This document shows positions 11,700 through 63,470 of a stretch of 64,000 nucleotides of DNA, one piece after another; position 1 is the stretch's first letter, and each line of letters starts with the position of its first letter. The notes under the pieces were generated by a model. It saw only the letters and a list, made by a program, of their open reading frames with translations, was not told where the DNA came from and did no database searches. Source of the stretch: Camelus ferus (taxonomy: Eukaryota). The stretch spans positions 60,700,001 to 60,764,000 of the forward strand of contig NC_045696.1 of NCBI RefSeq assembly GCF_009834535.1, read 5' to 3'. Position numbers and translations under genes: made by a program.

Positions 11700-12950
11700 G
11701 AATGCGGACTCCAGCATACTACCGCCGACCTCAGGAAATCACCTTGAAGAAGGGCCATACCTGTACTGCCAGCCTTTGGCACTGCCACCTCGGCTGCTGC
11801 TGCTGCTGCTGCTGCTGATTCCACCCCCACAGCTGCTGTTGCTGCTGTTCTTGTTCGGGGTCACCGCGGTGGCCAGGCCCTCCAGCCTTCCTTCGCTCTC
11901 TGAGACTTTCATTGCTGACACTGGTTCACCTCCCTGCATCTTAACTCCAAAGTCCATTTGCCCTTCTGGGGCAGGAGTGAATAACTCGGTAGAGTAGTTT
12001 TGTAAGTGATAAGATTTAAGATTTGATCTGAAGGTGATCCCAGGTGCCAAATCAGACGGCGGCCGGAGTAGGAACCATCAAATGGTCCAGGGAAGGAATA
12101 CAAGCATTCCCCTGAAGGAAAACTTTTAAGAGGAGAGGGGTAGCTTTGAGGACAAAGATCCTTTGAATATATATCTCCTTCCGTGCAAAAGCAAGGAGGA
12201 AAAAATCACCCTGCCAGAGGATCTGATGGCATGCTCAAAGGAGAAGCAGAAGCAGCGTGGGGAGGTCGCGGACTCTAGCCAAGAGGGCTGGCCGAAGGAC
12301 GGACCACGGACAGGGACCCGCGGCCTGACCTCTGGGCTGACGGACTGACCCGCCGCGCTCCCTCTTCTCCTCCAGCCGGTCCTCAGGGGGAGGGTCCCGT
12401 ACAGCCCGCTCGGCGGTTCCCGCCGCAGCCCCCGAGACAGAGCTGGAACCGCCCGCGCGCAGCCTGGGAGGAGGGCCGGGGAAGGAGGCCGCCGGGGGCG
12501 GGACGCCGGCTCCCAGGGCCGCCTCTCCTCCGGCCAGAGGCGAGCCGCTCGGGGCAACTTCCGCCTTGGGCCCTGGACGGGATTCGCAGGGGCGGATGAG
12601 TCCCTCGCCCTCTCTCCAGCCCAAACGGGAAAGCCACAGCTGCGACCGCCACCCCACCCACAGCCCCACGGCGGGTCACCCACCCGCCTGCTCTCTCCCC
12701 GCCTTCCCTTCCGGAGTAGGTGAGCTCACTTCCCCAGAGCAGAAGTCTCCGGCGCCATCTTGGAGCAGGGCATACGGCCCTCAAGGGGGCGGAGCCTCTG
12801 GGAGAGCCATGCTGGGGCGGCTGACTCCGGAGAAAGAGAGTGGGAGGGCGCCGGCGGGCGGAGGAGGTGGGACAGCCGAGGAAGGAGAAACAAAGGAGTT
12901 AGTGCCCTAGCGGAGGGTGACTTCCCGCCTTCCTAACCGGGTCCTTCCTG
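11700..12950. promoter_or_regulatory. OSBPL11: CpG island / promoter and 5'UTR of OSBPL11
   Basis: Abrupt GC- and CpG-rich block. Contains a YY1-type CGCCATCTT (12753-12761), an ETS-type CTTCCGG (~12708-12714), a GC box GGGGCGGAGC (~12786-12795) and an E2F-like TTCCCGCC (~12922-12929). Confidence 0.9.
11761..11939 (-). CDS. OSBPL11: Oxysterol-binding protein-related protein 11, first coding exon (59 codons + 2 nt); the gene continues beyond the left edge
   Basis: Translates MQGGEPVSAMKVSESEGRLEGLATAVTPNKNSSNSSCGGGISSSSSSSSRGGSAKGWQY, matching the ORP11 N-terminus as I recall it. Ends at donor AG|GTATGG (GT at 11760-11759) and lies in a CpG island. No exon 2 (DHMENVYGYL...) was seen in 1-11760, so that stretch is intron 1. 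Confidence 0.96.
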
Positions 12951-13759
12951 TTCTTCCACTTGAGGGCCCTTTACAGACATTTTAGGAAGAAAGCTTAGAA
13001 AGTTGTCATTTCTATAAGAAGTTACAAAAACAATCCCCCCACCCCACACACACAACCCACCTCTTTATTTTAGTAATTTTGCAAAAAAAACAAAAACAAA
13101 CAAACAAAAAAAACCAAGACACTGGAATAAGGCACACCAGTATTATACATGAGAAAGAAACTGTCATGGAAATTAGAGCTCTCAGAAACAAACCCAGGTA
13201 CTCCTTCTGACTCCTGACAACTCTTTCACCCTCTTTAGACCTGAGTTTTTGCATCTGTAAAATAAGAGTGTTTAGGTGATTTTTGAAGTCCCTTCTAATT
13301 GTAAATTCTAGTTTCCGGCAACATGAGTTGTGAATTGAATGTATACCGTATGCAAAATAGTATGGTGGTGCAAAGTAGTATTACTCAATGTAAAAATGTA
13401 AACAAAATAGTAAAATAAATACAGATATACAGATAAGACTATGAAGAAAATAAAAGGGGATGATATAGAAAATAAGTAGGATTAGATGGAGACTTACTTT
13501 AGAAAGAACAGTTGTGGAAAGTCATCTTTGAGGAGATGGCATTTAAAGTGAGAGACTGAAGAAAGATGAAGTTAAGGGAAAAGCAAACTATTTACTTTTG
13601 GGGAAATGAGAGACCTGGGAGCCTGGAGCTTAGCGAACAAGAGAGTGCTGTGAGGTGACAATGAAGACATAGGCAGAGAAATTTGGATTTTATTGTAAGC
13701 GCAATGGAAAGCCATTGAAAATTTTAATAGATGAGGGTTGTGATCTGATCTATGTTTTT

Positions 13760-14300
<541 letters not shown>

Positions 14301-27954: not shown

Positions 27955-30579
27955 CTAGAGAACATCTGACCAGCCTAAGAGAAGAGTAGCCCAGCAGTGA
28001 CCAGAACGGGCTCCAAAATAGACTTCTGGCTTTGAATTCTGGCTCTCCTTCCTATTTTTGATCTTAGGCAAGTTACTTACCCTATCTGTGCCTCAGTGTT
28101 CCCACCTTTCAAATGGGGACAACAATAGTGCCAACCTTCCAGTATTGTGGTGAAGACTGTCCCATTCTGCAGAGGAGGAAACTGAAGCTCAAGAAGTGAT
28201 AAGGGATTTTTCTCAAGACCACACAATTAGTTACGTGCTGGAGCTGGCATTTGGATTTAGAATTGCCCGTTCCCAAAGCCCATACTCTACCAACTGTAGT
28301 GATAGATTCAACTCAGCCAGGTGGTCAGTCAGATGTGCTATGTTGAGAACAATTCTGAGACTGCATCAGGGCTGAGTGGGAATGAGTGTGGGCACAGGAG
28401 GGGAGCTGCCACATATGTCATCCCCACTCGGCACATCCATAGAACTGGACATCATTTAGGAAGGGGTCCCCCAGCCTAGGAGAGCCTTCTGGACAAGCAC
28501 TGTGGCTTATTCATATGTCTTCCCAGCTCTTAGTACAGTGCCTGGACCAAAAAAGTAGGCAGTAAATACATGTTGAAGTAGATTGAATCAAGAGGTCCAC
28601 AGACTTTCCCCCTGAGGATGGGTCCTCTACCCTCTGGGTTTGTGCAGCTTCCTTTGGTTTGCCTTTAAAAAGGCAAACTTCTAGTCTTAAATGAGACTTG
28701 GGGAAGCTCATATATCCATATATTAAGACCTTCCATAGCTTTTACCCTTATTTCAAGGGCTAATATAAGTGTATAAAAGACACAGGATATGTTGATTTTA
28801 TTTTACTTCAGTCATTACAATGAAACAACAGCCAGTTTATCCAGCTTGCCTTCTTCCTCTCTGCTATGCCTGTTCACTCTTTCTTTACTCCTAATTACAA
28901 AGGCAAATGGATGGTTTTCTTAAAGGTGGGAAGTAAAACAGATCGATGAGTGAGAGTTTACAAATAACATCCTATCTTTGGAACATAGTCAGTCTGGGAC
29001 CATTGATTGTTTCATTTTCCCTCCTGATTTAGAGAGTAGTGGAAGTCTGGGGTGTTTACTGTTTCACAAGAGTCTCGGTAAAAGGAGTACTTGACTTGGT
29101 TTCATATGCAAAATCTGCTCACCTACTTAGGTGTGGCCCAAGCAGAGCGCACTCAGGAGAACTGGCCCTTGAGAGGGTTGTTCTTGGACTGAAACCCAAT
29201 CTAGTGCATATTTCCATCTTCTTCCTTTAATGTAAAAGGGTATTTAGATCCTGCAGCATGAGGAGACTAGTTTCATGGTTTTTTATGATGATAAAAGCAG
29301 GAGGCTGGAACAGATAACTACTCGAATCTTCTTTTAGCTTAAAAAATTATTGGCCACTTCCTAACAGCCATGTGTTGCTAAACGCTTTCATGTATATTAT
29401 CTCATTTAATTCTCATAACAGCTGTAGGGATGAGGTTTCATTACGTTATTGTGCAGATAAAATCTTAGACACCAGAAGGCTATGTGACTTGCCAAGGCTA
29501 TTCAGCTTCCAAGTGGTTAAACCTCATTTATTCAATAAATGTTTACTGAGCTTCTGCTTTGTGCCAGGCACTGGAATAAACTCTAGAAACACTGAAATGA
29601 ATAAGAGGTAGCCCTGCACTCAAGAGCTCCAGTCCAAAGACAAGGATGATCTCTAAATGAATTATATAATCCAGTGTGGTTAAGGAGTGATACCTGTGTG
29701 GAAAGGGCATCGTGGGAGCACAGATAGTGGAACTTGACCAGCCTGGGAGTCAGGAGGATTTTAGTTGATGAACCAGTAAGCACTGAGCTGATAAAGGAGG
29801 GTTGAAAAGGGATAGACTGCATCCCAGGCACTGGGAAGGGGCAGCACAAGCAAAGGCATGGAGAAAGGAAACAGCACTGAGTGTAAGATCCACAAAGTCA
29901 GGATTTCTGGGTGGTAGGTGTGGAGGGGGCTGGCGTGGTATGCAGGGGCTTTTCAAATGACCTACACTCTTCCCCTTGAAGCCTATGCCCTGCAAAGAAG
30001 CAGCATGTGCCCTTGAAGCCTGTGCCCTGCTGAGACTCCAAAATGGCCCCAATCAGCTACTCTTAGGTGAAAGTTTAAATCAGATAGTCTACAGGGTGGG
30101 AGGAAGATGTGTTGCTGCAACCCAGAAAATCACTTTTCCTCTAATAGGCTCCTGAGCCATCTCCTAGTAGAGCAAGTGTCTAATTAGATAAACAATTAAA
30201 GAGCTAGGAACAGGGATTGTAGTCAGTGTGTAATAGAGGGTGATTCTTCTGATGACCACAGCCCCAGCGAATGGTTGTGATGCAGCAGTTAAGTTCAACC
30301 TCCTGAGTTCTTCTTCCCCATCCTACCCTGGCTTTCTCTCTGTCTCCATCCTCCTGCAAACTATCTATACACCTCTGCCCTTTTCCTGTGTTTGTCTCTA
30401 CTGTTCTTTGAGTTTGCATGGGATGCTTGCCATCACTGAAATGGACTGAACGTGTGAGGCTTGGCCTCCAGAACAGTGTTTCCAAACTAAACTACAGTGC
30501 AGTCGAATCAGCTGCATGAATCCTCTGGGACCCAAGATTAAGCGAGGATGAGATGAAAGCTTCTAAGTAGGAAACACGA

Positions 30580-30740
30580 CAGCTAGATCAGGGGTCCCAA
30601 AGTGTGATCTGTGGACCAATTGCACTGGAGGTGTTTCTGTTAAGCAGAGATTAAAGGGCCCCAACCCAGGCCTATTGCTTCCAGATATCTTGAGATGTAG
30701 CCAAGAATTTTGTATTTTTAACAAGGCCACTGGAGGATCA
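30580..30740. mobile_element. MER5-like hAT element
   Basis: caggggtcccaaagtgtgatc...gaattttgtatttttaacaag. Confidence 0.55.
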
Positions 30741-30745
30741 TATAT

Positions 30746-30791
<46 letters not shown>
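30740..30791. repeat. (AT)n microsatellite
   Basis: About 21 uninterrupted AT units. Confidence 0.95.
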
Positions 30792-30794
<3 letters not shown>

Positions 30795-31906
30795 ATTACC
30801 TAGAACAGGAGTCACAAAATGGCAGCAGCAGGTCAAGCTAATCTGCAGATACATGTTGTTTGTCCCTTATAGTGCTTTAAAAATCAGAACATTTTACTCA
30901 AAAATCTCAATTCCTGGCCTCTCTCTAGATAGGCAACCTGAAGCCCATATTTACACAATGATCATCTGAAACTAGCTATGTAAGGACCATTCTGTTTCAG
31001 CCAGCATACCGTCAGTCCCCGGAGCCACCAGGGCCTCCCCTGGCCTAATAGCCTCACCTTTGACTTGGGCTCCTCCAGAACAAGGACCAGGTATTTGTCA
31101 TCCATGAATCCTCAGTCTCTAAAACCAAGTTTACAGGAGAGAGTGAATAAATGGGTTGAATCAACAGGCACAAGCTTGATGATAAGCTCCTCTTGGCTTG
31201 GATAACTTAACTGCAGTCAAAAATAACCCTTGGTTTTAGGTGTAGGACGCATGCGGTCTCATCCTGGTTCTACTGCTGATACCTTTGGGTATATCACCTC
31301 ACTCCTCAGAGTCTAAGTTATCTTAACTTTATGAGGATGGATTTGACACTAAATTCTTCCATCTCGAAAAGTGTAGCTTCTGGAGGCTGTGGGTAGCTTC
31401 CATTTTTAAATTTTATGTGGCAGAAAAGGCTATGGTGAAACTTGGTCCCAGCCACCCTCACTCTCTGAGGCCCCACACTCACAATGCCGTCTGTTGACAC
31501 AGCAATTTGGAATCTTAGTCTGACCTGAGGGGGTAGCTGACCCTCCACAGAATGGTTGGTATTTATGGAGTGAGACCGGGCTAACTCCTTTCACTATTCA
31601 CAGATAAAGTCCAAACACTTCAACATAGTGCAGAGGGCTCTTCATACCCAGCTCCCGGCCAGATAACCCCGTAACGCTCCTCCTTTCCACCCACAATACT
31701 CAGTTACCCGCGCTGTCCCACACCCACGTTCCTCCCCTCTCTGCCTTTGTACATACTGTCTTCTGTTCCTCACCGCATTCAGCCATCCAGTGAGCTCCTA
31801 CTTGGCCTTCAACAATCTGTGGAAGGATCCCTCTGGGAAGTTGTTTCAGCCCCTGCCCCTGCCACTTTCTCCAGGCCTAACTTCACTCTCTCCCTCCTCA
31901 GTACTC

Positions 31907-32046
31907 TTTTTTTTTTTTTTCCCCTTTGGTGGGAGAGGTAATTAGGTTTACTTATTTATTTATTCTTAGAGGAAGTACTGGAGATTGAACCCAGGATCTC
32001 ATGCATGCTAAGAACGCATTCTACCACTTGAGCCATACCCTCCCCA
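31907..32046 (-). mobile_element. Camelid-type tRNA-derived SINE
   Basis: T-tail, GGTAATTAGGTTTACTTATTT, GATTGAACCCAGG, CTACCACTTGAGC. Confidence 0.85.
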
Positions 32047-32959
32047 CGCCTCCGTATTTTAACTTTGTCTCGTACATGTCCGTGTCATCACATTATCACA
32101 GTTCTCACTCCTTTATGTGTTGGCTCCCCCACTAGACTGTGATCCCCTTGAGGGCAAGGATCTAGGACACATCTCAGAAGCACAACCCATGCATGTTGGA
32201 TGAAGACTGACCAGCCCAAAATCTGATATGCTGGAGGGACTGCACGTCAGAGAAGAGCTGACCATTAGCCCTTGCCCTGCCCACGTTCCCCTCCCCCACC
32301 ACACATTCTTCAGCATTTTGAGATGCAGAGCTCATGGCTGATCTTTAGAATGACTGATGATGTTTACCATTGGTTGATTATCCTGTGTTTCAGCATCAGC
32401 GCTGCATAACATGGATCGAAGGGATTGTATGTAAATAATTATTTGGTGTGGCTCTTAACAGTAACGGCATGGTGTAGTGCAGCACTTCCTGAGCCATTAT
32501 GAGGAATCCTCTAATCTTCTTTTGGAGAATGTAAATAGACACTGCATTAAAAAAGTAATCTGATCAAAAAAAGTCTGGGAAAGTCCGAAAACTTCCAGCA
32601 TATTAAAGGTTCCTAAGTCTGGTGATAAAAAACAAGGTTTAATTTTAGTTCCCCCAATGTTTCCAAAGCACAATGTTGAGGAACAAACACTGAATTAGAA
32701 GTCAGAAGACCTGAGTTCTCATTCCCCCTCTGCCACTAATATGAATGTGTGATCCTAAACCAACACTTCCCCTTTTGGAGCCTCAAATTCCTCATTTGTA
32801 AATTGAATGGATTGGAAAAAAATCTAAAATGACATGACTGGATTAGATTATTTCTAGTTGCACTTCTAATCCCCATTTTCTATCCTGCTCAGAAGGGATG
32901 AACAACTCTCGTTTTGATGCCCTTGCTGGACTTAAAAGGCTTATACAATGGGTACTTAC

Positions 32960-35077
32960 CTATATGGTCTGAGCTCTGCTCTGCCCGTCCCAGGAACAGC
33001 TGGGCAGGAGCTAGGATGTTCCCTTAATGCAGCTGTTTCCTGCGGAAGGCTGGATCTGATGGGGAATTATCTGGCAGTTCTGAGCTGGTTGTGCCAACTC
33101 TGGGACAACCTTTTTATTTTTATTTTTTCCAGGACAATCTTTAACATCATAAGAATCAGCCATCCACTTTTCCTCTTCTCCTTTGCAATGAATTCCCATT
33201 GCAGAGATCATTGCCCTGAATATCCAAAAAACAATAAATCTGACAGTAAAGTAAAACTCTGGGTTAAGGAAGAGCAATGGGTAGGAGAGATTTGATAGCA
33301 ACTATCAACCAGGGCCCTGAAAACCTGAAGTGCCTGCCAGGAGACCAGATCTCCAAGAGTGTCATGAGGGAAGCAAGACCCAGAGTTCCCCTGGTCTTGA
33401 GAAGAAATACAGCCAAGCTGGTTCCCTTCAAAGTCCATCTATGGAAAGGAAAGTACATTTTGAAATCACGGAATTCACACAGACAGCCCACAGGTATTTC
33501 CTGCTGATGGAGGCACTATTAGCATGGTGCTATGTTCAGAACCAAAAACTCACACTTCCTGCTCTGAAGGATAGACCCCAAACGGCCACCGTTTAAGACT
33601 CACATCACACATAAGCAGAGTGGTGGTTCCTTCCAAATACCATCTCAGCAAAGTCAGAAATACCATGACCCAGAATAATCTCTAGCCAGAATTTTCTTCT
33701 TTTGTAAGGTACCACCATCCCAGGATCCTTCCTTCTTTCCTTTCCTTTATCCTGAAATATTACAGGGTATTCATCCCTATTGTTAAATGACAAATCTAAA
33801 ACAAGTTGGTTTGATGTCCTTCCTTTATTCAAGGGAAAGTGATCCACAGACTGGGGAAATACAGTGCCTCCCAGGCAGTGGACCCTCTTCCCCGGGATTT
33901 TGGGCCTGAGTGATTTTTGCATTAGACGCTGGCAATGCAGAAACAGGGCGTAGCTGGCTAGGAGGTCCTATTTCTCTAGGGTCAGGTAAACCAGCTACAG
34001 CTGAGATGGAGGGTTGAGCTGGGTGTTAGGTTTCCTTGGACAGTGAGGCGTTTCCGTAAGTGCTGCTGACTTGGGTGTAGCACGGGGCAGCCTCCATCTT
34101 GTGGGTCTTAATTGAGGAGTGAACTTTATCACTGCATTTCAGGTCTTGCATTTCATAGCATGGTGTGTCATGGAGCCTAAGTGAGTGCACATAGTGCAAC
34201 CGTTACAGGGATTGGGTCCAAAAGTTAATGTCTAAGGCAAAAATCAAGTATTATTGGAAATATCCTTGAAAATATTTAAAACCATCCCTAAAGGTGGTGA
34301 AATGATCACAGTATGAGAAGCACCCAGACAGCAGAGGGACCTGGGTTTAACTGAGGGGTTCTGTCATTCATCCCACACTTCTCCAGGCCGTTGACTTTCT
34401 GCGGAATGGTCCTAGTTAAACTGCAATTTCTCTCTCAGAGTTTTGCTTGTTTTGTTCTGTTTTGGCTAAAATTGAATTTGTGTAAGCTAAGTATGTATAT
34501 GACACCCATTCAGTGAAATAAATAGAAAAAATATCTACCTTCATCCTGCTAACTAAGGTTACCCCCTGGGTGAGAACTGGGATTGGGGTGCTAAACAAAA
34601 AGAGGGTCAGAGAAGACCTCAGCCTTCTCTGTCATGTTTTTATTTTTATCTAACACAGAAAATGTATTCATATTTTTCTTGTGTTACATAAAAAGCTCCC
34701 CGACTACAAGTTGCTCACTATCGGGAAAGACAGGCATAGAAAGAAACAACAACAAGACAGTATCATGAGTGCTATAATAGCATTTATAAGCAAACATAGG
34801 GGAGGGGAGCAATTAACTTTTCCCTGCTGGTTAATCTCATCCCTGCCCTTTTGTTCTGTACTCAGGGAAACACAGTTGAAGCCTTGCTTATCTTGCTTCA
34901 AGGTGACCTAGACATGGCTTGGGCAGTTTGGCTTGTCTTGCCAGGTCCCTCCTCTGCCCCAGGGAAGGGCAGCTCTTATAGTATGCAGGGTTAGGGCAGG
35001 CATGTAGACATTAAGAGGAGGCATCTACCTGAGTTTGATAATCTGCTACATTTTTTTCTGCTATTACAGTGATCTTG
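32960..35077 (-). pseudogene. Fossil exons 35029-35077, ~34817-34907, 33992-34176, 33604-33822, ~33325-33438, 32960-33215
   Basis: Consensus donors AG|GTAAGT (32959) and T|GTGAGT (33603); acceptors cccctctcacccctag and ctttcctttccatag. RTSNQLVLDLSFNNRDEYPVIFQDKGKERRKDPGMVVPYKRRKFWLEIILGHGISDFAEMVFGRNHHSAYV* is 72 codons with only a terminal TGA. LHDTPCYEMQDLKC... has one stop in 61. Confidence 0.65.
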
Positions 35078-35179
35078 CTAGGGGTGAGAGGGGACCTTGG
35101 ATTCCTATGGTGTGTTGACCAGTGGACTCACTCTTGGTGACACCTTCTCCTCCTCTTTGTCTTCTGTGAGGCAGAATGG

Positions 35180-36495
35180 ACATACATATATTTGTTTTCA
35201 TATTCTTTTTCACTACAGGTTATTACAAGATATTGAATATAGTTCCCTGTGCGATACAATAGAAACTTGCTGTTTATCTATTTTATGCATAGTAGTATCT
35301 GCAAATCTCAAACTCTCTTCTCACCCCCTTCCCACCCTGGTAACCATAAGTTTGTTTTCTATGTCTGGGAGTCTGTTTCTGTTTTGTAAATAAGTTCATT
35401 TTCTTTTCTTTTCTTTTTTTTTTTAAGATCCACATATAAGTGACATCATATGGTATTTTTCTTTCTCTTTCTGGCTTACTTCACTTAGAATGACAATCTT
35501 CAGGTCCATCCATGTTGCTGCAAATGGCATTATTTTATTCTTTTTAAGGGCTGAGTAGTATTCCACTGCATAAATATACCACAGTTTCTTTATCCAGTCA
35601 TCTGTTGATGGACATTTAGGTTGTTTCCATGTCTTGATTATTGTAAATAGTGCTGCTATGAACATTGAGGTGCATGTGTCTTTTTGAAATAAGGTTCCTT
35701 CTGTACATATGCACAGGGGTGGGATTGCTGGATCGTATGTTAAGTCTATTGTTAGTTTCTTAAGGAATCTCCATACTGTTTTCCATAATGGTTGCATTTC
35801 CACCAGCAGTGTAGGAGGGTCCCCTTTTCTCCATACCCTCTCCAGCATTTATCGTTTGTGGACTTTTGAATGACAGCCATTCTGACTGGTGTGAGGTGAT
35901 ACCTCATGTAGCTTTGATTTGCATTTCTCTGATAATTAGCAATATTGAGCATTTTTTCGTGTGTCTTTGTTGAAGAATTGCTTGTTTAGGTCTTTTGCCC
36001 ATTTTTAGATTGGGTTTTTTTTTCTTATTAAGTTGTATGAGCTATTTACATATTCTGGAAATTAAGCCCTTGTCAGTCTCATCTTTTGCAAATATTTTCT
36101 CCCATTCCATAAGCTGTCTTTTTGTTTTGCTTATGGTTTCCTTTGCTGTGCAAAAGCTTATGAGTTTAATTAGGTCCCATTTGTTTATTTTTGCTTTTAT
36201 TCCTATTGCCTAGGTAGACTGCCCTAGGGGAACATTGCTGAGATTTATGTCAGATAATGTTTTGCCTATGTTTTCTTCTAAGAGGTTTATAGTATCTTGT
36301 CTTAGGTTTAAGTCTTTAAGCCATTTTGAGTTTATTTTTGTGTATGGTGTGAGGGAGTATTCTAACTTCATTGATTTACATGCAGCTGTCCAGTTTTCCC
36401 AACACCATTTGCTGAAGAGACTGTCCTTACTCCATTGTATGTTCTTGCCTCCTTTGTCAAAGATTAATTGACCACAAGTTTGTGGGTTTATTTCT
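35180..36495 (-). mobile_element. Young 5'-truncated L1 body; its 3' tail lies at 37328-37441 on +
   Basis: Well-preserved ORF2 C-terminus (ORFs 35423-35848, 36210-36521); lacks its own polyA end. Confidence 0.9.
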
Positions 36496-37309
36496 ATTTG
36501 TAGACTTTTTGATGATAGCAATTCTGACAGGTGTGAGGTGATATCTCATTGTGGTTTTGATTTGCATTTCTCTGATCATTAGCGATGCTGAGCATCTTTT
36601 CATGTGCTTGTTAGCCATCTGAATGTCTTCTTTGGAAAAAAGTCTATTTAATTCTTCTGCCCATTTTTAATTGAGTTGTTTGTTTTTTGATATTGAGTTA
36701 TATGAGCAGTTTATATATTTTGGGTATTAACCCCTAATAGGTCATATCATTTGCAAATATTTTCTCCCATTCAGTAGGTTGTCTTTTCATTTTGTTGATG
36801 ATTTCCTTTGTTGTGCAAACACTTTTAAGTTTAATTAGGTCTCATTTTCACAGAATTAGAACAATAATTCCTAAAATTTATGTGCAGCCACAAAAGAACT
36901 GCCAAAGCAATCTTGAGAAAAAAGAAGAAAAAATATCTGGAAGGTATCACAGATACCTGACTTCAGAGTATATTACAAAGCTACCGTAATCAAGACAGCA
37001 TGATACTGGCACAAAAACAGACACATAGATCAATGGAACAGAATAGAGAGCCCAGAAATAAACCCACACACCTATGACAAAGGCATCAATTAATGTACGA
37101 CAAAGGAGTCAAGAATATACATGGAGAAAAGACAGTCTCTTCAATAAGTAGTGCTGGAAAAACGAAAATGAAATTAGAACATTTCCTCACATCATATGCA
37201 AAAAATAAACTCATAATGGGTTAAAGACCTAAATGTAAGACTTGAAACCATAAAACTCCTAGAAGAAAACATAGGCAGAATAGTCTATGACATAAATCGT
37301 AGCAACATT
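36495..37309. mobile_element. Older L1 with internal inversion (minus 36495-36845, plus 36847-37309)
   Basis: Strand switch at about 36846, typical of twin priming. Confidence 0.8.
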
Positions 37310-38654
37310 GTGAATATTCTTAATTCTTATGAAAACAAATATATGTTCATTTATGACTGAAGAATTATGCTGTACACCAGAAATTGACACAATATTGTAA
37401 ACTGACTATACTTCAATAAAATATATATATACCAAAAAAAAGTATATTAGTGCAGTTGAAAACCAATTTAAGTGATTTATAATTACCAGGAGAGTCCCCA
37501 GAAGTGGCCCTGAAATTGTGATTGCTTTGTATTTAAAGTAACCACCTTCAGCCATGGCTTTTTCTAAGTGGGACTTCCTTAAGAGTAATACTTTGACTTA
37601 ATTACTGAGACAGTTCATGTTTATCATCCTGTGATTCTTTTTTCTTATGAGGTACAAAAGCAGTGAAGCAATCAATGTAAGACATGAAGAAAATCCTAAA
37701 AATAGTAACACTTGTCAACAGAAACTAGGACATTAAACTTAATGCCTATGATACAGATTACAACACTCTGCAAAACCATGTGTGGAATTCACAGACGCTT
37801 GACTTCAGTTTTATGCTGATGAGCATTGATGACTTTTGACAGTAGCATCTAAATAGGTAAATAGCAATAAAAATGATTTGATCACAAGGCATTTTCCTAT
37901 GTATGTCTTCTCAAATAGAAAATATTTACTAGTAATTTATTTAATAAGGTCAAAGAAAACTCTAAGTTCCTACAATTCTTCAATTAAGGGAAAAGAGCCA
38001 TAAAATCAGAGCCAGGGGAATGATGTTCATTCTCAACCCCTATATCTAGGTTACTGTGAAACTAAAAGCAAATTATTACCTTTTAGCCGTTGTTTCTTAA
38101 GTGCCAAATGGTTTAAAAATGCCTACACCGTAGGCGGATCAAATGAGATAATACACACAAAACATGTACACTACCAACCAAAACCTTAATGTTATCCACA
38201 TTAAGAGAAAATAAATTATACACCTTTGACAATAGCAAAATCCAGGTAGATTGTTCCAGTAATGTAGCAGGTGCATTTTTCTGGTTTCATGTACACACAC
38301 TGTTTTTAGATTTTTAAAAATTTTACTGAATGCTGTAATGTATTTTGTTTTCTGTTTATGATTGAATATAAAAAGCCCATCAGAAAATCTGGCAAATTGA
38401 GATATTAAATTGATACAATTGAGACAATGAGAGTTCAGAAGTTTCCAGTCAATAGTCACCAATTAATGACTGAATTAGGAATATTTGGTGACTATTTCAA
38501 AACAGTCATTTATACTAATAACAAAGTTGTTAATAATTAAATTATGATCTCTTAGATTAACATTCACTGATTATGGAAACTAGAGTCAGTATTTCTAATA
38601 CTGAACTGCCAAAAGAAAAATAAATGTTAATATTAAAGCTGTACCCAAGTGGAA

Positions 38655-39438
38655 AAAAATAACAAATGTTGGTGAGGAATGTGGAGAAAAGTGAATATTT
38701 GTGCACTGTTGGTGGAACATAAATTGGTACAGCCAATATGGAAAATAGTATGGAGGTTCCTCAAAAAACTAGGAATAGAACCATATGATCCAGCAATTCC
38801 ACTCCTGAGTATATATCCAAAAAAAATGAAAACACTAATTCAGAAAGATATATCCACCACAATGTTCATAGCAGTATTATTTATAATAGCGAAGATATGG
38901 AAGCAACCCAAGTGTCCACCAACAGATAAATGGAGATATATATATATATATATGACATCTTCTTTATATATATACATATATATATGGAATGGGATATATA
39001 TAAATGGAATACTACTCAGCCACAAAAAAGAATTAAATTCTGCCATTTGCAACAATGTGGATGGACCTAGAGAGTATTATGCTTAGTGAAATAAGTCAGA
39101 CAAAGACAAATACTGTGTGTTATCACTTATACATGGAATCTAAAAAATAAAACAAACTAATGTATATAGTAACACAGGAACAGACTCACAGATATGGAAA
39201 ACAAATTAGTGGTTACCAGTGGGGAGAGAGGAGAGGGGGAGGCAAGATAGGGGTAGAGGATTAAGAGATATAAACTACTATGTATAAAATAGATAAGGAA
39301 CAAGGAAATGTTGTACAGCACAGAAAATTATTTTGTAATAACTTTAATGGAGTATAATCTATAAAATATTGAATCACTATGCTGTATACCTAAAATTAGT
39401 ATAATATTGTAAATCAACTATATTTCAATTTAAAAAAG
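38655..39438 (+). mobile_element. L1 3' end; continuation of the older L1 broken at 36495
   Basis: Starts aaataacaaatgttggtgagg, the expected continuation of ...aaaaagtctacaaata. Confidence 0.85.
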
Positions 39439-41250
39439 AAAAAGGGAAACTATTTGGTGGGTGAACACATTTTCTCTGACCTTGTGTAAGAAAAATATGT
39501 TTAATAACTTTAAATTTTGGTGAACTGTATTTTTGTAAAAAATTAAGACAAAATAGGGGAAGGACTGTAAGCTTTGAGAGGGCAGGAGCTGTGTCTGCTT
39601 CTTTACAGCTGAGTCCCCAAGCCTGGACCATCACTGATGCCCATAAATACAGGAGGGAATGAATGTATCATGTGGCATGCACTGACTAACCAAAACTCAT
39701 AGGGAAAGGAGAGAAAGCTTGCCTTGAGGGGACAGTGTATGAAGAAAGGAAAATTCAGAAGCACTGGACTTTCTGACAAATGCCACTGATTTGGGGGCAG
39801 GAGCACACAGAGATGAGAGAATTGGGCAGCAGTCATGATAGAAAACACGTGGGACAAAGAGGTGAACTTTTGTCTGAGCTTCTCAGTGAGATCAGAGGGA
39901 GAAATTCCAACGAGAAATCAAAAGACTCTTGGTGAAGTGAAAGTGTTCTTGGGCAGCTGGGGTGAAACTTCACACCGCCACGTGGGTGCCTTGCCCCTAT
40001 TCCAAGCCGGTTTATCAAACCTGGAACTGCTATTGCAGACCTCAAAACCCAGCCTCCCATGGCTAACAGAAGATTAAAGAGCTGCTCTAGGGGTTAAGGT
40101 CTTGGGCACCAGACTCAGACACAAACAGAATCCGAGGTTCACAATGGAGTCTTTTCTAGGATGCTCTCACAGACTGGAGGTAGATCATTTCTAGAAGGTA
40201 TTGGCCTTTGAGAACTGGCATCATAAAACATGAGTGTCTTGCTCATTTTTTCAGGCATTCAAGAAATATTTATGGAGCATCTACCACGTGGCAGGAAATG
40301 TTTTCAGCTCTTGGACATGTCAATGAACTAAATAAGCAGAAATCTGTGCCCCAGAGAGCTTACATTCTAATAGGGATGGGTGAATCCCCATGACATTTTT
40401 CACAATGTCTTTGTCTCTGCCTGTCCTTCTGCAGAGGTAGAGTGGGAAAAAACAGATGAGACTTGTCATACATTCATTTTGAGCTACCTTGCAGAGCAGT
40501 CATATGAGGGGGGAAGGGCTACTGTAGGTTTGAAATTATCCACAATTGTCTAGCATCTTTTTTTTTTAATTCCTTGCTGTTCTCACTTGTTTGAATGGCA
40601 GTCTCTCATCAAGACTATGACCCAAGTTTCACTTTGACTGATGAGCTTAGGGTTTGAGGCATAATATGGTCAACCTTTTACAAGCCTATGTGCCAACTAA
40701 TACAAAGCTGAACCAGGAAATCAGCTCTGAATGGGGGCCTTCCTTTCCATACCCGCAAGACTCACCCTTGTCATGTAAACAGTTGCCAGAGTCCACACTG
40801 AGAGTCTGGCTGCTCAGTCCAGAGTGAAGACACAGACCTTAGGGAGTAGTTTGGTTAATTTCTAAACTCTTTCTTGAATAATTATTTATTAAGCACCCAC
40901 TCTGTGCCAAATACTCTCTAGGTTCTAGGGATGTAAGGGTGAATGTAAATGGATAAAGGGTCTGTCCTCAAAGAGCTGATAATGCTATTGAGGGTAGAGA
41001 GAGGGACTGAAAATAAACCATGTTGGTCAATGTCATCTACACATAGGACTTCCCAAATTCTAATGTGCACTTCCTAAAGGGGAGTTCCTCTGCTAATAGG
41101 AATAAAAAGGCATTAACCAATACAAAAGCGAAAAGAACACAAGAACCCTTAATTAAATATGGAGAAATGAGTCTGTTGCTATTTTAAAACCTTGAGGGAA
41201 TTAAATAATGATGAGCAATAATTTTGTGATTGGGTTAAAGGGTATTTTTA

Positions 41251-41397
41251 TTTTCATTTTTAAAGAATCCTGGATTTTATTTTTTTTGAGGTATAGTTGA
41301 TTTGCAATATTGTGTTAATTTCTGGTGTACAGTACAGTGTTAGTCTATTTTTTTATTGAAGTATAGTCAATATATAAAGTTGTGTTAATTTCTGGTG
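41251..41397 (-). mobile_element. Short L1 insertion made of two tandem 3' tails
   Basis: 15-bp TSD TAAAGGGTATTTTTA at 41236-41250 and 41398-41412. Confidence 0.8.
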
Positions 41398-41619
41398 TAA
41401 AGGGTATTTTTAGTAATAAGATTTAATGTTATGGGTAGAGTTCTTATACAATTGGCAGGAGCGTAAATGCTAAGTTTTTTCTGGAGTGTAATATGTATCA
41501 AACAATATGTATCAAATGCTTTAAAATAGGGCTTTTAACTTAGTTATTTCTCATTTAAAATTTATTTTAATAAACTAATTGTGGATGTGCATACTTTTTT
41601 CACTTTTAGAGAAATTAAG

Positions 41620-46644: not shown

Positions 46645-46955
46645 TTATAGTGGAATCTAAAAAAATTTTTTTAAATGAATATAACATAACAGAAGCAGAC
46701 TCACAGATGTAGACAATGAACTATGGTCACCATTGGGGAGAAGGATAGTGGGAAGGGCAAGCTAGGGGTAGGAGAGATTAAGAGGTACAAATTATTAGGT
46801 ATAGCATAAACAAGATACAAGGATGTATTGTACTATGCAGAGAATATAGCCAATATTTTAGAATAACTTTAAATGGAATATAACCTATAAAAATATTGAA
46901 TCACTATGTTGTACATCTGAAACTAATATTGTATCAACTATATTTTAATTAAAAG
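46645..46955 (+). mobile_element. L1 3' tail inserted in a MIR
   Basis: gtggaatctaaaaa...gaatcactatgttgtacatctgaaactaat; MIR sequence on both sides. Confidence 0.75.
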
Positions 46956-47044
46956 AGTTTATATGAGAAGTGCTTAAGTAGTAAGCACTCAACAAAAAGT
47001 AGCTATTTCTTTGCCTTTTATACTTTATTATATGTCCTTTCTTG

Positions 47045-50000
47045 ATTTTTTAAAAATTTATTTTTTACTGAGGTAACACTGGTATATAACATTATGTATG
47101 TTTCATGTATATAATAACATTACATTTCTACTTTTGTATACACTACAGTGTGCTCACCACCAAAAATTTAGTTTCCATCTGTCACCATGCAGTTGATTCC
47201 CTTTGTCCATTTCATACTTGCCCCCAACCCCCACCATCTATTCCCCTCTGGCAGCCACTACCCTGTTCTCTACCTACATGTTTGTTTTTGCTTGGTTTAT
47301 TTATTTTGATTTTTTGTTTGTTTGTATGTTTTTTACATTCCACATATGAGTGAAATCATATATTTGTCTTCAACATTTCACTTAGCATAATGCCCTCAAC
47401 ATCTATCCATGTTGCTGCAAATGGCAAAATTTCATCTTTTTATGGCTGGGTAATATTCCATTACCCGTCCCCCCCGAAATACGTCACATCTTTATCCATT
47501 CATCTGTTGATGGGCACTTAGGTTGTTTCCAATCTTGGCTATTATAAATAATGCTGTAATGAACAATAGGGTGTATATATCTTTTCAAATTAGTGTTTTC
47601 ATATTTTTTAAATACCCAGAAGTGTGATAGCTGGATCATATGGTAGTTCTGTTCTTAATATTTTGATAAGCTTAGTACTGTTTTTCATAGTGGCTGTGCC
47701 AATTTACATTCCAACAGTGCATGAGAGACATCCTCACCAACATTTGTTATTTGTGCTCTTTTTGATGATAGCCATTCTGACAGGTGTGAGGTAATATCTT
47801 ATTCTGGTTTTGATTTGCTCTTCCCTAATAATTAGTGATGTTAAACATCTTTTCATGTGCCTGTTGGCCATTTGTATGTCTTCTTTGGAAAAATGACTAT
47901 TCAGCTCCTCTGCCCATTTTTTAATCGGATTGTTTATTATTGTTGAGTTGTATGAGGTTTTTTTTAATATATTTTGGATATTAAACTCTTATTAGATATA
48001 TAATTTGCAAATATCATCTTTCATTCAGTAGGCAGTCGTCTTGCTTTGCTGATGGTTTTCTTTGCTGTGCAGGAGTTTTTAGTTTGATGTTGTTCCATTT
48101 GCTTATTTTTGCTTTTGTTTTCCTTGCCTGAGGAGACATATCTAGAAAGATATTGCTAAGACTGATGTCAAAGAGCCTATTGTCTATGTTTTATTCTAGG
48201 AGTTTAATGGCTTCAGGTTTTACAATTTAGGCCTTTAAACCACTTTGAGTGGATTTTTGTATGAGATAGTGATCTAGTTTCATTTTTTTTGCATGTGACT
48301 ATTCAGTGTTCTCAACACCATATACTGAAGAGACTATCCTTTCTCCATTGTATGTTCTTTGCTCCTTTGTTGTAAATTAATTGTCCATATGTGTGTGGGT
48401 TTATTTCTGCACTCTCAGATCTGTTCCATTCATCTATGTATCTGTTCTTCTGCCAGTATCATGCTGCTTTGATTACTGTATCTTTGTAATATTTGAAATC
48501 AGGGATTACAAGTATCTCCAGCTTGCTTCTTCTTCTTTTTTTAACCTCAGGATTTCTTTGGCTATTTGATTTCTTTTTTGGTTCCATATAGATAGTTATC
48601 ATTTTTTGCTCTATTTCTGTGATAAATGTCCTTGGGATTTTGATAGGGATTTCATTAAATCTGTAGATTGCTTTAAGTAATATGGACATTTTAACAGTGT
48701 TAATTCTTCCAGTCCACGAGCACGAAATATCTTTCCACTTATTTGTGTCTTCTTCAATTTCTGTTAAGAATATCTTACAGTTTTCAGTGTATAAGTCTTT
48801 TGTCTCCTTGGTTAAATTTACTCCTACATATTTTAGCAACTTGGATGGACCTAGAGATTATTATATTGAGTGAGGTAAGTCAGACAAAGACAAATATCAT
48901 ATGATATCACTTATATGTGCAATCTAAAAAAAAGATACAAATTCTATTTACAAGCCAAAAACAGACTCACAGACATGGAAAACAAAATATAGTTATCAAA
49001 GGGGAAAGGGCAAGGAGGGATGAATTAGAGGCTGGGGATTAACAGACACATATTACTATACATAAAATAGATAAACAACAAGGACCTACTGCATGGCACA
49101 GGGAACTACATTTAATTTCTTGTAATAACATATAATGGAAAAGAATCTGAAAAGAAAAAAATATGTATGTATGTATATTTATAGCTGAATCACTTTGCTG
49201 TATACCTGAAACTAACTTTGTAAATCAACTACACTTCAAGAAAATTTTTAAAATTTTATTTATTTATTTATTTATTTAGTGGGGGGATTAGGTTTATTTA
49301 TTTATTTATATTTTGAGGAGGTACTGGGGATAGAACCCAGGACCTTGTGCCTGCTAAGCATGTGCTCTAGCACTCGCACTATACCCTACCACCCTAAAAA
49401 TTTTTTTTTAAAGAAAAAAATTATTCCCAGATATTTTATTCTTTCTGTTGAAATTGCAAGTGTACAATATACTTTTGCCTTTTTGTTTTTGGTAGAAGAG
49501 CTCCTTTCAACAATTCTTACAAGGTAGGCCTAGTGCTGATTAACTCCCTCAGCTTTTATTTGTCTGAGGGTCTTTGATTCTCCTTCATATCTGAATCATA
49601 ACTTTTCTGGGTAGAGTATTCTTGGCTGACAGTTTTTACCTTTCAGTATTTTAAAAATGCCATTGCCCTCCCTCCTGGCCTACAGAGTTTCTGCTGAGAA
49701 ATCTGCTGATAGTCTAATTGGGGGTAGGGGGCTTTTTCGTAGGTTACCATCCTTTTTCCCCTGGCTTTAAAATCATCACTGACTTTTGACAGTTTTAATA
49801 TGTGTCTTTGAGAAGGTCTTTTGCTTTGAGGTGTTCTTTTAGCTTCCTGGACATGTATCCAGTTCCTTCCACAGGATTGGGAGGTTCTCAGCCTTTATTT
49901 CTTTAAATACACTTTCTGCTCCTTCTTCCTTGCTTCTCCTTCAGGGATACCTATTACCCGAATGTTGTCCTTCCTAAAGGAGTCAGATAGCTCTCACAGA

Positions 50001-51230
50001 ATTTACTCATTAAAAAAAAAACTTAATTCCCTTTCCTCTTCTTCTTGTATCATTTCTAGATTTCTATCTTCTATGTTGCTAATTCTCTCTCCCGTATTGC
50101 CTGGTCTATTTCCAGTGCTTTTTAATATGTTCTTGTTTATTGAGATCTTCAGTCCAGACTTTGATTCTTTTTTGACATCGTTTTCAATATGTTTGGTAAA
50201 GTGTACCTTCTGTTCAGTCACTCAGGAATGATTTTATTCCTGAGCTCACCGAACTGCCTGAGTTTTCTTGTCGCTCATTGAGTTTGTTCATGACAGCTAC
50301 TTTGAATTCTCTATCACTTGGAATGCAATATTCCATGACTTTAAGCTCGGTTTCTAGAGAACTGTCATTTTCTTTTGTGGTACAGTGTTACTGTGGTTCT
50401 TCATGATGTTTGCTGAGTTCTGCCCATGCATTTGAACCAGAGAGCACCTTTCTACTTGATTCTAACAATCGAACAGATTAGAAATAGGCCTTTCTTTTGT
50501 TTTCCAGTAGGTGGCACACTAGCACAAGTTTTTGGTTTCTCTTACCTGAGCTGCTTCACTTTCCACCCTCACTGCTTCCATCAAAAGGCCACCCATACGG
50601 TCCTTAAGTTCACTGCTTGTGCCTCCAGGGCTGTTGGTGCCTTGCTGCTGCCAGTGTCACTAGTGTCACCACCTGAGGGAGGTGCTTCTAGAACATCTGG
50701 GATCTGCCACTGTGGGGGGAGAGGAAAGGAGGGTTAGAGTAGGGGTGGGAAGACCAGGGTTGGGAAGGCAACTTTGCTTTGTCTGCTGTTTTCAGATTCG
50801 TGGGCTCTGTCACTGTTGGGGGGGGGGGGCCTCTGGAGTCATGGATGCCTCCACAGCTGGAGGAACAGGGTCCCAGGCCCCACTGTGACTGCTGCCCAGT
50901 TACCTGTGGCCGCGAGTGCCACTGTGGCTGACAGGATGGAGTGCTGAGTGCTGCCTCCCCTGCTGCTACTGGATTCTCTGGGGCTGTAGGCTCAGTTGCG
51001 ACAGCTGGAGGGCAGCGTTGCAGGCACTGTCTCTGCTGTTTCCCTAGTTCCACCTCCCCTGTGTGTTCCAGTCCACCAACTGTTAGATATACAGATGTGT
51101 GGAATTCTCTGGCGTCCTGGTGTGCTGGGCAGAGGCACCTTTGTTGAGTTGTGGATATTTTACTGGTTGTAGATTGAAGGGAGAGACAGTCTCTCATTCC
51201 TTCATGCTACTGATGACACTCTCCTGAAGG
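47045..51230 (-). mobile_element. Internally deleted L1 (5' region + ORF1 remnant at 49480-51230; ORF2 3' part and 3'UTR at 47045-48835), interrupted by a + strand L1 tail (48836-49420)
   Basis: ORF2-like KYVGVNLTKETKDLYTEN...WKDISCSWTGRINTVKM; ORF1-like ERISNIEDRNLEMIQEEEERE. Confidence 0.85.
49255..49394 (-). mobile_element. Camelid-type SINE inserted in an L1 A-tail
   Basis: (TTTA)n tail and SINE head reversed; AAAATTTTT on both flanks. Confidence 0.8.
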
Positions 51231-61600: not shown

Positions 61601-63470
61601 TCAAGTATAAAAAGCACCATGCTCAGAAACAATACTACCTAAATGGCATTACTGCACAACAGTTAAAACATAACTGAACCTATCACTGTGAATCTCAAAT
61701 ATATTATTAATCCATGGTGTTTTTGGTGAAATTCTTTATACAACTTTGCAGGATGACTCATAATCACAATAGATATGTAAGTTTAGATTTTTATAACTTT
61801 CTTTAAAAATATACTCTACACTTTTCTCTGACTTTCCATGATGTAAAGTATGCAGGACATAGGCAGAAACGCCACTGCTGTTAGCTTCTCTTCAGCTGAG
61901 GCTGGCAATGCTAGAGACCACCAGCTTTTCACAAGGACAAATACCTCCAATTCAAAACTGTATGCTACTAAATATTTTAAATTTATGTATTAAAAAAAGG
62001 TGACTTTCCTTTACGCTGGGGCTGCTGTTTGGTTCCAGCGTCAAATAGTCAGCTGGAATTACTCCTTAGTTATTATGCTGTTTGTTCACTTAGCAAATTT
62101 CTTAAATTAGTGCTCAAAAACCTTATGCTGAATTAAAGGGCCAACCAATGAATGAATGAATAAATGCATGCTTGTCCAAGGGCTGTGTTTATGCTGCCAC
62201 AGGACTTCATTAGCCTTAGAGAGAAAAACCAGGCATCATTCATCATTGAAGAATTTCAAATTGGGATTATTAAGTAGGGTTGGTCAGCTCTGGTACCAGA
62301 GCAGAATTGCTTCTGGGGACCAGAATCTACGTGGTGACAGAAAGAATGTCAAATGCAGGAGGTAAAGGATATTATCTCCTCCGTTTAAAGCAAAGGCAAT
62401 CTTCTGACTTCTATGGACCCTACTGGATAGGCCCTACACCAAACCTACACTTTGTAAACAATTCAGACCCTCTTGTTTTGACTTACACTTTGCATTTTAT
62501 ACATAAAATAATTTTCAGATAGCAGAAATTCTTCTGTAACAATTTCTAAGCCCACCTGAATATAACTGCATACCTGTCTATACCAGATTTCTTTTTATCT
62601 TCATTGATCAAAAAGGAACACTTCTATTTTTGTTGGATTGCGGTTGTCATAACTATTATCTGAAAAATATACAAATGTTTTCTTCCATTTGCATGTCTTC
62701 AATATTTTCACAAGGCAGAGTATTCTTCTCTCTCTGCCTCCCGGCTTTTCAAGTTATTATTAAACTAATGGAGAATACAGCTGGAAGCTGATCTCTGAGG
62801 ATCAAGGAGTATGGATATAGCTGGAAGAGGGCTACCAGCACATAATGGCTCAGCAGGAAACTGCCACACAGCACTGTGAAATCATAAAATTTAGCGAAAC
62901 ATAATTTAAAAAAACACTCTTTAGAACAATGAGAACAATCATTTAGGTATACCATATACAGTTATTAAATTTAAAACAGGTATAATAGTGATGCAGAAAT
63001 CCCAATTCAAATTATTTTCTGTAAGTCAAAGGACAATTTATACTTTTGAAGACAGGGTCCACAACTTATGATCTTGCAATAATTAGCTGTTCTTTAAATT
63101 ATTGCAGCATTGATGAAATTTCCCATTGTTTTAGGATAATGAAAATGCTGAGGTATGTAATCACTGAAATTTTCACCAATTATCCCATTTTCAAAGGAAA
63201 ACTTCAAGAAGGTTATGCATCCTGAAAAATAAAGAGACTTCGGTGATTTGGAATTCCTTCTCATTCTCCAAACTCTGAGGCTGTTGAGTTGCTGATGAGG
63301 AGTGACGGCTGTGAAGCTCTCCTTCAAGGTCTGATCTTGGTCAACACTTCCAAGCCAAACTCTGGAATGCCACTTCTGCCATCTGCATTGGCTAGCACTT
63401 GCCCAGATTTTGTGCTTTGTTCAGAGGAACATGACACAAAGGAATGTCTTGAGAATTCACTTATCCATTC
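58640..63470 (-). other. LMLN: Probable long 3'UTR of LMLN; candidate AATAAA signals at 59960-59965 and 58656-58661 (minus strand)
   Basis: Repeat-poor, AT-rich DNA directly downstream of the stop. The 59960 signal is followed by a U-rich tract. The exact 3' end cannot be determined. Confidence 0.6.

Follow-up and report, generated by a model that had tools for sequence, protein, structure and literature searches.

Two nested L1 insertions, a parentless 3' transduction and a local inversion between OSBPL11 and LMLN in Camelus ferus

Nested L1 insertions and a 2148-bp inversion

The window analysed here, a 64,000-nucleotide (nt) stretch of Camelus ferus contig NC_045696.1 (assembly GCF_009834535.1, positions 60,700,001 to 60,764,000), covers the interval between the genes OSBPL11 and LMLN and holds a nested pair of old L1 retrotransposons, in which a younger element (L1B) sits within an older one (L1A), together with an inverted segment of 2148 bp at 35180-37327. 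The initial annotation had read this region as a single fossil exon of a lost gene, rebuilt from three pieces (p1, p2 and p3) that one L1 insertion and an inversion had separated. Two L1 insertions are in fact present, and the proposed exon is most likely a chance interval in the flanking DNA.

Comparison with genomic family copies indicates that L1A and L1B are each cut in two in the window, and that in other copies both elements are uninterrupted exactly at the cut points. In the L1B family the letters at 35180 run straight into those of the tail (24 alignments, 22 of 24 loci), and in the L1A family the letters at 36497 continue into those at 38659 in 13 of 14 loci; as the latter two are consecutive positions of L1A, one end of the inverted genomic DNA coincides with the primary insertion site. 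Flipping 35180-37327 back restores both elements, and these alignments thereby demonstrate the inversion. The claims that L1 split the target and that a segment is inverted thus stand.

L1A is itself a twin-primed element, whose query segments 1-465 and 463-813 adjoin in opposite relative orientation in other copies; its inverted 5' piece is adjacent in the element to the sense piece, with a gap of about 45-55 nt as estimated from other copies, and its target-site duplication is 2 nt at most, which is not a typical length. The pieces of L1A lie 12-17% from their best family copies, against 8-13% for L1B, and because of this larger divergence, and because L1B lies inside it, L1A is judged to be the older of the two. 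The best genome copies of the L1B stretch 35180-36496 are 82-88% identical, and 19-23 nt of L1B are present in both of its pieces in the window.

At its 3' end L1B has an A-run that is followed by unique DNA mapping to another locus, the hallmark of a 3' transduction, and the region is thus not all L1 with an 18-nt filler, as had been proposed. In the 2.09-Gb genome the search for 37441-38648 returned two candidates, both scored, of which one is the window itself and the other, the sole further match, is C3:16029645-16031157 (83% and 88% identical in two pieces). The motif AATAAA stands at 38619, about 24 nt before the last base common to the source, and is followed there by 7 A that are not at the source, which runs on as ordinary DNA past the end point of the window copy and begins at a T-run/A-run resembling an L1 endonuclease target. 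No parent L1 lies directly upstream at the source, the sole upstream match in 7.6 kb being a reverse-strand 3' fragment 6.3 kb away. The 1.2-kb stretch is a parentless L1 3' transduction from contig C3. In dogs, parentless L1 3' transductions dominate, with a source devoid of an adjacent L1 in 24 of 27 cases in one comparison (PMC13141329). The derivation from C3 rules out that the supposed gene had this stretch as an intron of its own. A template switch by L1 messenger RNA is a less likely origin, as no obvious exon was seen by eye in about 9 kb around the source, and the chimeras in PMC13174262, which carry other RNA 5' of L1, likewise count against it. The target-site duplication of L1B amounts to about 5 A-rich nt on both sides and is too short to be distinctive.

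At the source, a reverse-oriented L1 3' end of about 255 nt was inserted afterwards (G000:C3:16030364-16030618); it is absent from the window copy and may serve as a second dating marker. The transduction in turn can be used as a clock within the locus and is the trace of an L1 allele since gone from its source. The two camelid tribes split 16-25 million years (Myr) ago. Window and source diverge by 0.098 (Kimura two-parameter distance, 1189 columns), or 0.049 per copy, which corresponds to 22 Myr at 1.1e-8 per 5-year generation (PMC7305198) and to 35 Myr at 7e-9 (PMC7331169). Dated in this manner, the transduction would be about 22-35 Myr old, an age that roughly equals or exceeds that of the tribal split. 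The coordinates of all pieces are collected in Table 1.

Table 1. Features of the nested L1 region, in window coordinates (UTR, untranslated region; J1 and J3, junctions of L1B; X, left flank).
Feature	Position	Strand	Remarks
Left flank X / p3	35132..35179	-	Followed by GT donor-like site at 35131; end of the proposed exon
Junction J1	35174..35180	+	End of X pairs over 6-7 nt with L1 letters 37346-37352; primer-like microhomology
L1B 5' part	35180..36496	-	5'-truncated ORF2 end and most of 3' UTR, 1317 nt; orientation opposite to that of the L1B tail
L1A sense piece, first part	36497..36846	-	Flipped target DNA; ends where L1B inserted and overlaps 38655-38660 by about 5 nt
L1A twin-primed 5' inversion	36846..37309	+	Flipped target DNA; about 45-55 nt missing between the L1A pieces
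p2	37310..37327	+	18 nt, non-L1; most likely original L1A 5' flank inside the inversion
L1B 3' tail with short A-run	37328..37440	+	Blunt join to p2 (J3); begins 19-23 nt upstream of the end of the inverted piece
3' transduction	37441..38648	+	Unique DNA from G000:C3:16029645-16031157; AATAAA at 38619
L1B transcript poly(A) remnant, 7 A	38652..38658	+	Primary insertion junction
L1A 3' part and A-rich tail	38659..39438	+	Original orientation
Right flank / p1	39439..39480	-	AG acceptor-like site at 39481; start of the proposed exon; inner boundary ambiguous in A-run

One event or two

These data allow a model to which, as a whole, we give about an even chance, and which proposes three steps in non-coding DNA, with the apparent exon arising by coincidence. 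In the first step, as the arrangement of its pieces indicates, L1A inserted between p2 and p1 with an ordinary twin-primed 5' inversion. In the second, likewise legible in the structure, an L1B on C3 was read through its weak end and polyadenylated 1.2 kb downstream, and the transcript was reverse transcribed into the middle of L1A; the parent copy, which is not at the C3 locus in this genome, was presumably never fixed there. In the third, of which the structure can be read directly and the timing is our reconstruction, the second DNA end may have been remodelled during the same L1B insertion: a flank 831 bp off would have annealed to L1 sequence along 6-7 nt, a 2148-bp unit made up of 831 bp of target DNA and the 1317-nt 5' part of L1B would have been flipped, and the poly(A)-primed complementary DNA (cDNA) would have been attached, by a blunt join, to the distal end of this unit.

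L1B takes part in four junctions. At the primary one (38652-38659) the A-tail is found together with about 5 nt that also occur at the 5' junction at 36497. At J1 (35179/35180) 6-7 nt at the end of X, two G-T/U wobbles included, are complementary to 37346-37352, just 3' of the start of the inverted piece; among 86,800 random 3' ends, 0.7% pair over 6 nt at this site. J3 (37327/37328) has a homology of 0 and is a blunt join. This pattern matches that of L1 insertions with local inversion reported from tumours and cell lines, in which one inversion breakpoint lies at the primary insertion site, the primary breakpoint carries a 4-15-bp overlap, the inversion junction shows homology and the cDNA-genomic join shows 0 bp (bioRxiv 10.1101/2024.12.14.628481). 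The sizes given in the same source are 917 bp for an inversion in one clone and 3,275 bp for a tumour case, where the inverted stretch comprises L1 as well as genomic DNA. Because of this correspondence, we infer that the L1B insertion and the inversion were probably a single event.

It is also possible, if somewhat less probable, that two plain insertions were followed by an independent 2148-bp inversion (35180-37327) through microhomology-mediated repair, in which a staggered break duplicated about 20 nt of L1B. This scenario, the nearest to the picture drawn in the initial annotation, yields the same final structure, and the human germ line offers many balanced inversions of similar size, with 257 counted, a median of 1,565 bp and only 45 bordered by inverted repeats (PMC12350158). 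However, it requires a second rare event with a breakpoint inside the same L1, and that event would have to mimic twin priming through an overlap confined to the L1 side, pairing of the primer type in exactly the right register and a blunt second join. Self-BLAST found no inverted repeat pair bordering the two breakpoints, which speaks against a later inversion, and which also removes recombination between two opposite L1 copies as the cause.

Several observations nevertheless count against simultaneous insertion and inversion. The J1 pairing shrinks to 4 nt when the commonest family letters are used, and a pairing of 6 nt is obtained with just 1 of 21 copies. No substitution separates the two copies of the duplicated 19 nt, which also have in common CpG-decay letters that occur in 5 of 21 members of the family; since about 2 differences would be expected at a divergence of 0.098 and none is seen, this leans mildly to a later duplication, a lean tempered by a 4-nt unit that differs between the two copies of the overlap. 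The overlap of 19-23 nt further exceeds the upper quartile of 17 nt for germ-line twin-primed L1s, although an overlap as such is a twin-priming trait, present in 42% of these with a median of 12 nt (PMC12016303), and speaks for a single event. Both target duplications, of about 5 and 2 nt, are very short. Weighed against the junction pattern, these points leave a single event as the reading that we favour.

The 18-nt piece p2 bears on both the original target and the proposed exon. It is not a sense continuation of L1A, of which family copies go on after 37309 with a T-run and then GGATC-like letters, nor of L1B, of which family copies are A-rich before 37328; its description as non-L1 DNA is thereby borne out. 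Quite probably p2 is native, that is, original DNA beside the 5' end of L1A, because with p2 in place the T-run of the L1A target leads into G and so forms an endonuclease site that is listed as such (TTTT/G; PMC12016303), whereas without p2 the T-run leads into C. As an unlikelier course, p2 may be filler that came from additional bases at the L1A 5' end or from templated synthesis at the blunt join, or else bases may have been lost at the X/p2 or p2/p1 boundary, such that the original site was not the 108-nt sequence. The L1A target duplication of 2 nt or less would equally fit a small target deletion, p2 shares an 8-nt AT-rich word, possibly by chance, with the neighbouring L1B 3' UTR, and the published class includes deletions at the proximal breakpoint (bioRxiv 10.1101/2024.12.14.628481). 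Since bases can be lost there, contiguity of X and p2 is not guaranteed. However, the endonuclease site exists only with p2, and the first base of the flipped p2 lengthens the J1 pairing by one, which argues for p2 as original flank.

The proposed exon and the interval between OSBPL11 and LMLN

The three pieces of the proposed exon lie where the initial annotation placed them and translate as it had said: p1 (39480-39439, minus strand, 42 nt), p2 (37310-37327, plus strand, 18 nt) and p3 (35179-35132, minus strand, 48 nt). Joined, they give 108 nt that are stop-free, in frame 0 only. The splice sites are present in kind, p1 coming after AG and p3 preceding AGA|GTGAGT, and are only middling in strength when scored with a frequency matrix: among 3319 minus-strand GT the donor (score 6.5) comes 144th, and among 4495 minus-strand AG the acceptor comes 344th. 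An interval of this type, from AG to GT, stop-free, phase 0 and a multiple of three, spans 0.6-2.7% of 12,400 intergenic points, or 2.8-9.7% when any frame is allowed, under four threshold settings placed at or somewhat below the splice scores of this site. With at least 14 repeat blocks in the window, one of them a microsatellite, 0.1-0.4 strict chance matches would thus be expected per strand.

The frame, moreover, owes nothing to p2: p1 and p3 are open when joined directly, p1 is open with p2 reversed, and 62% of p2 shuffles are open, so that p2, which had been offered as support for the exon, adds nothing to the case. The boundary of p1, which falls in an A-run that also forms part of the L1 tail, is equally permissive. 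When 13 positions were tried as its end, an open multiple of three resulted from 4, of which only 39439 and 39442 lie within the five-A run, and because the L1A target duplication is 2 nt or less, the number of A's assigned to p1 is a free choice. The 108-nt interval is therefore most likely a chance AG...GT interval in the flanks, and as register-dependent and compatible with chance it lends no independent support to a lost gene.

Alternatively, L1A may have struck a genuine exon, p1-p2-p3, belonging to a non-coding transcript or to a protein-coding gene since lost from the interval between LMLN and OSBPL11, a reading that is independent of how the inversion arose and that we consider improbable. 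It can draw on the correct AG and GT ends, the 0-0 phase and the open 108 nt, for which the strict chance per point is only 0.6-2.7%, on phase-compatible exon-like neighbours at 44068-43910 and at 33438-32960 or 33039-32960, and on an unnamed gene in the pig, ENSSSCG00000050583, that lies between LMLN and OSBPL11 and measures about 5 kb as computed from the distances given (PMC9100799). The position of this gene, whose identifier turned up in a single paper, would correspond, roughly, to 30,000-39,000 of the window. However, many breakpoints, registers and frames were open to choice, and the gene lists of one chicken paper and one cattle paper place OSBPL11 and LMLN side by side with no named gene between them. 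The protein evidence, to which we now turn, likewise runs against a real exon and leaves a chance interval as the preferred explanation.

The most exon-like phase-0 neighbour downstream is 33438-32960 (minus strand), which has only two stops in 159 codons; about 40 comparable nearly open stretches occur in intergenic DNA on both strands. Its 159-residue read-through (33438-32962, with X at the stops) obtained 2 matches among 1.84 billion proteins with phmmer, both of them (P0002 and P0003) unnamed open reading frames (ORFs) on 2-3-kb Logan contigs, which are probably orthologous DNA of other mammals. One of these ORFs aligns in frame across the supposed acceptor with 43/75 identities upstream and 40/75 inside (Fisher p 0.74), which is what neutral DNA at about 25% divergence would give, and each of the two ORFs ends at one of the two stops of the window. 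Equal identity inside and outside, together with the shared stops, indicates that 33438-32960 shows no coding constraint and that its frame is closed in other genomes too; this one candidate, in other words, is not better conserved than the DNA upstream of it. P0002 and P0003 (window 33681-33070, minus strand) look like spurious ORFs on orthologous non-coding DNA and could mislead into a gene call.

Other searches for relatives agree. Weak word searches, of which that for 33438-33211 missed the P0002 and P0003 later found by phmmer, gave no protein relative for 33438-33211 (27 candidates, none scored) or for the upstream candidate 44068-43910 (9 candidates, none scored), and no candidate for the p1-containing frame 39630-39433, the joined 36-residue peptide itself not having been searched. 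Pfam matched 0 of 21 ORFs, a set that includes L1 and OSBPL11 fragments and in which short pieces are easily missed, and PDB sequences gave 0. No paralogue was found in the camel genome, where the only matches were the window itself, one at E 0.9 and short repeat-like stretches, and none of 59 and 293 pattern matches in viral and metagenome contigs was confirmed as orthologous DNA. Sequencing runs held 0.99 of the words of 31900-35200 in 14 DNA or unlabelled runs (two organism labels, near-identical genomes), 0.91 and 0.78 in RNA-labelled runs of one study, 0.24 and 0.10 in those of another, and 0.38 and 0.36 in runs guessed to be RNA, fractions that are no evidence of expression or splicing. 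OSBPL11 was not mentioned in the literature on camel gene loss or an upstream pseudogene, among the matches listed. The lost-gene model of the initial annotation is thus not supported, the downstream candidate showing no coding constraint and the searches, weak as they are, giving no relative, and its suggestion that the exonic L1 helped to kill the gene has at present no gene to refer to.

Domain matches on the minus strand mark both sides of the window: Oxysterol_BP 39-55 kb ahead of its start and Peptidase_M8, matched nowhere else in the genome, 27 kb past its end. These positions fit a last exon of LMLN near 63,470 and a first exon of OSBPL11 near 12,000, as we take them to be. Further stop-free AG...GT intervals with fair splice scores occur at 44068-43910 and 21181-21075 (both minus strand), neither with a Pfam match, and an apparent exon at 31210-31058, presumably an L2 remnant, was set aside. 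The antisense of the ORF at 13749-14174 is, we assume, a retrocopy of the ribosomal-protein gene RPL32. At 41281-41402 a short L1 3' tail is present twice, with both copies facing the same way and about 70 nt between them, and a long minus-strand L1 at about 46,670-51,200 contains nested insertions, including an opposite-strand L1 3' end (48835-49240) and a piece resembling a short interspersed element; a further opposite-strand tail lies at 46674-46954.

Significance and comparison with known systems

Each ingredient of this locus is of a known kind, to which the combination, at a germ-line site more than 20 Myr old, adds a new example. If insertion and inversion were one event, the site would represent a germ-line, L1-made local inversion tens of millions of years old. 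No germ-line report of an L1 insertion with local inversion was found in the literature searched, and older literature may hold cases. By extension, some small inversions beside L1s in mammalian genomes may be insertion by-products, recognisable by the four junction features. The boldest combination, in which p1-p2-p3 would be genuinely exonic, in a mammalian gene that is not annotated or in a non-coding transcript that is conserved (perhaps the pig locus), broken by L1A in camelids and then scrambled by a single twin-primed, transducing, target-flipping L1B, is to our minds a long shot; if both its true-exon and its single-event parts held, the site would be a germ-line fossil of a mechanism that we found described only in tumours and cell lines. 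As a case of gene loss the site matters little at present, because no gene has been shown.

Unitary pseudogene exons disrupted by a retrotransposon form a general class. The proposed exon resembles that class in its AG...GT interval and in a frame that is open once the insertions are removed, and differs from it in that no intact orthologue, paralogue or conservation signal was found, by searches that are weak. The twin-primed, 5'-inverted L1 is a class said to go back to Ostertag and Kazazian in 2001, and L1A is a plain example of it. L1B has the overlap and the primer-like pairing of the class; however, the two halves of such elements are joined to each other, whereas those of L1B are separated by 831 bp of flipped target DNA.

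The parentless transductions of dogs share with L1B the L1 tail, the unique downstream DNA, the poly(A) and a source with no adjacent L1 (PMC13141329). However, the dog cases are young dimorphic insertions, whereas the camel copy has diverged by 0.098 and its source has since gained a separate insertion. Two L1 bridges that stem from one twin-primed L1 offer a second parallel, with L1 halves at two junctions, a shared inversion breakpoint and one terminal poly(A) (bioRxiv 10.1101/2024.08.27.596794), although the examples worked out in that source are tumour translocations and megabase-scale rearrangements, and the bridges here are 831 bp apart. The closest likeness is to L1 insertions with local inversion (bioRxiv 10.1101/2024.12.14.628481), shared features being a sub-kilobase inversion of the target, a short primary overlap (about 5 nt here), microhomology at J1 and a blunt cDNA-genomic join. 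Those cases are somatic or experimental human events of which the states before and after are known, whereas the camel site, where simultaneity is our reading of the junctions, lies in the germ line, is probably some 22-35 Myr old, is nested in an older L1 and carries a 1.2-kb transduction.

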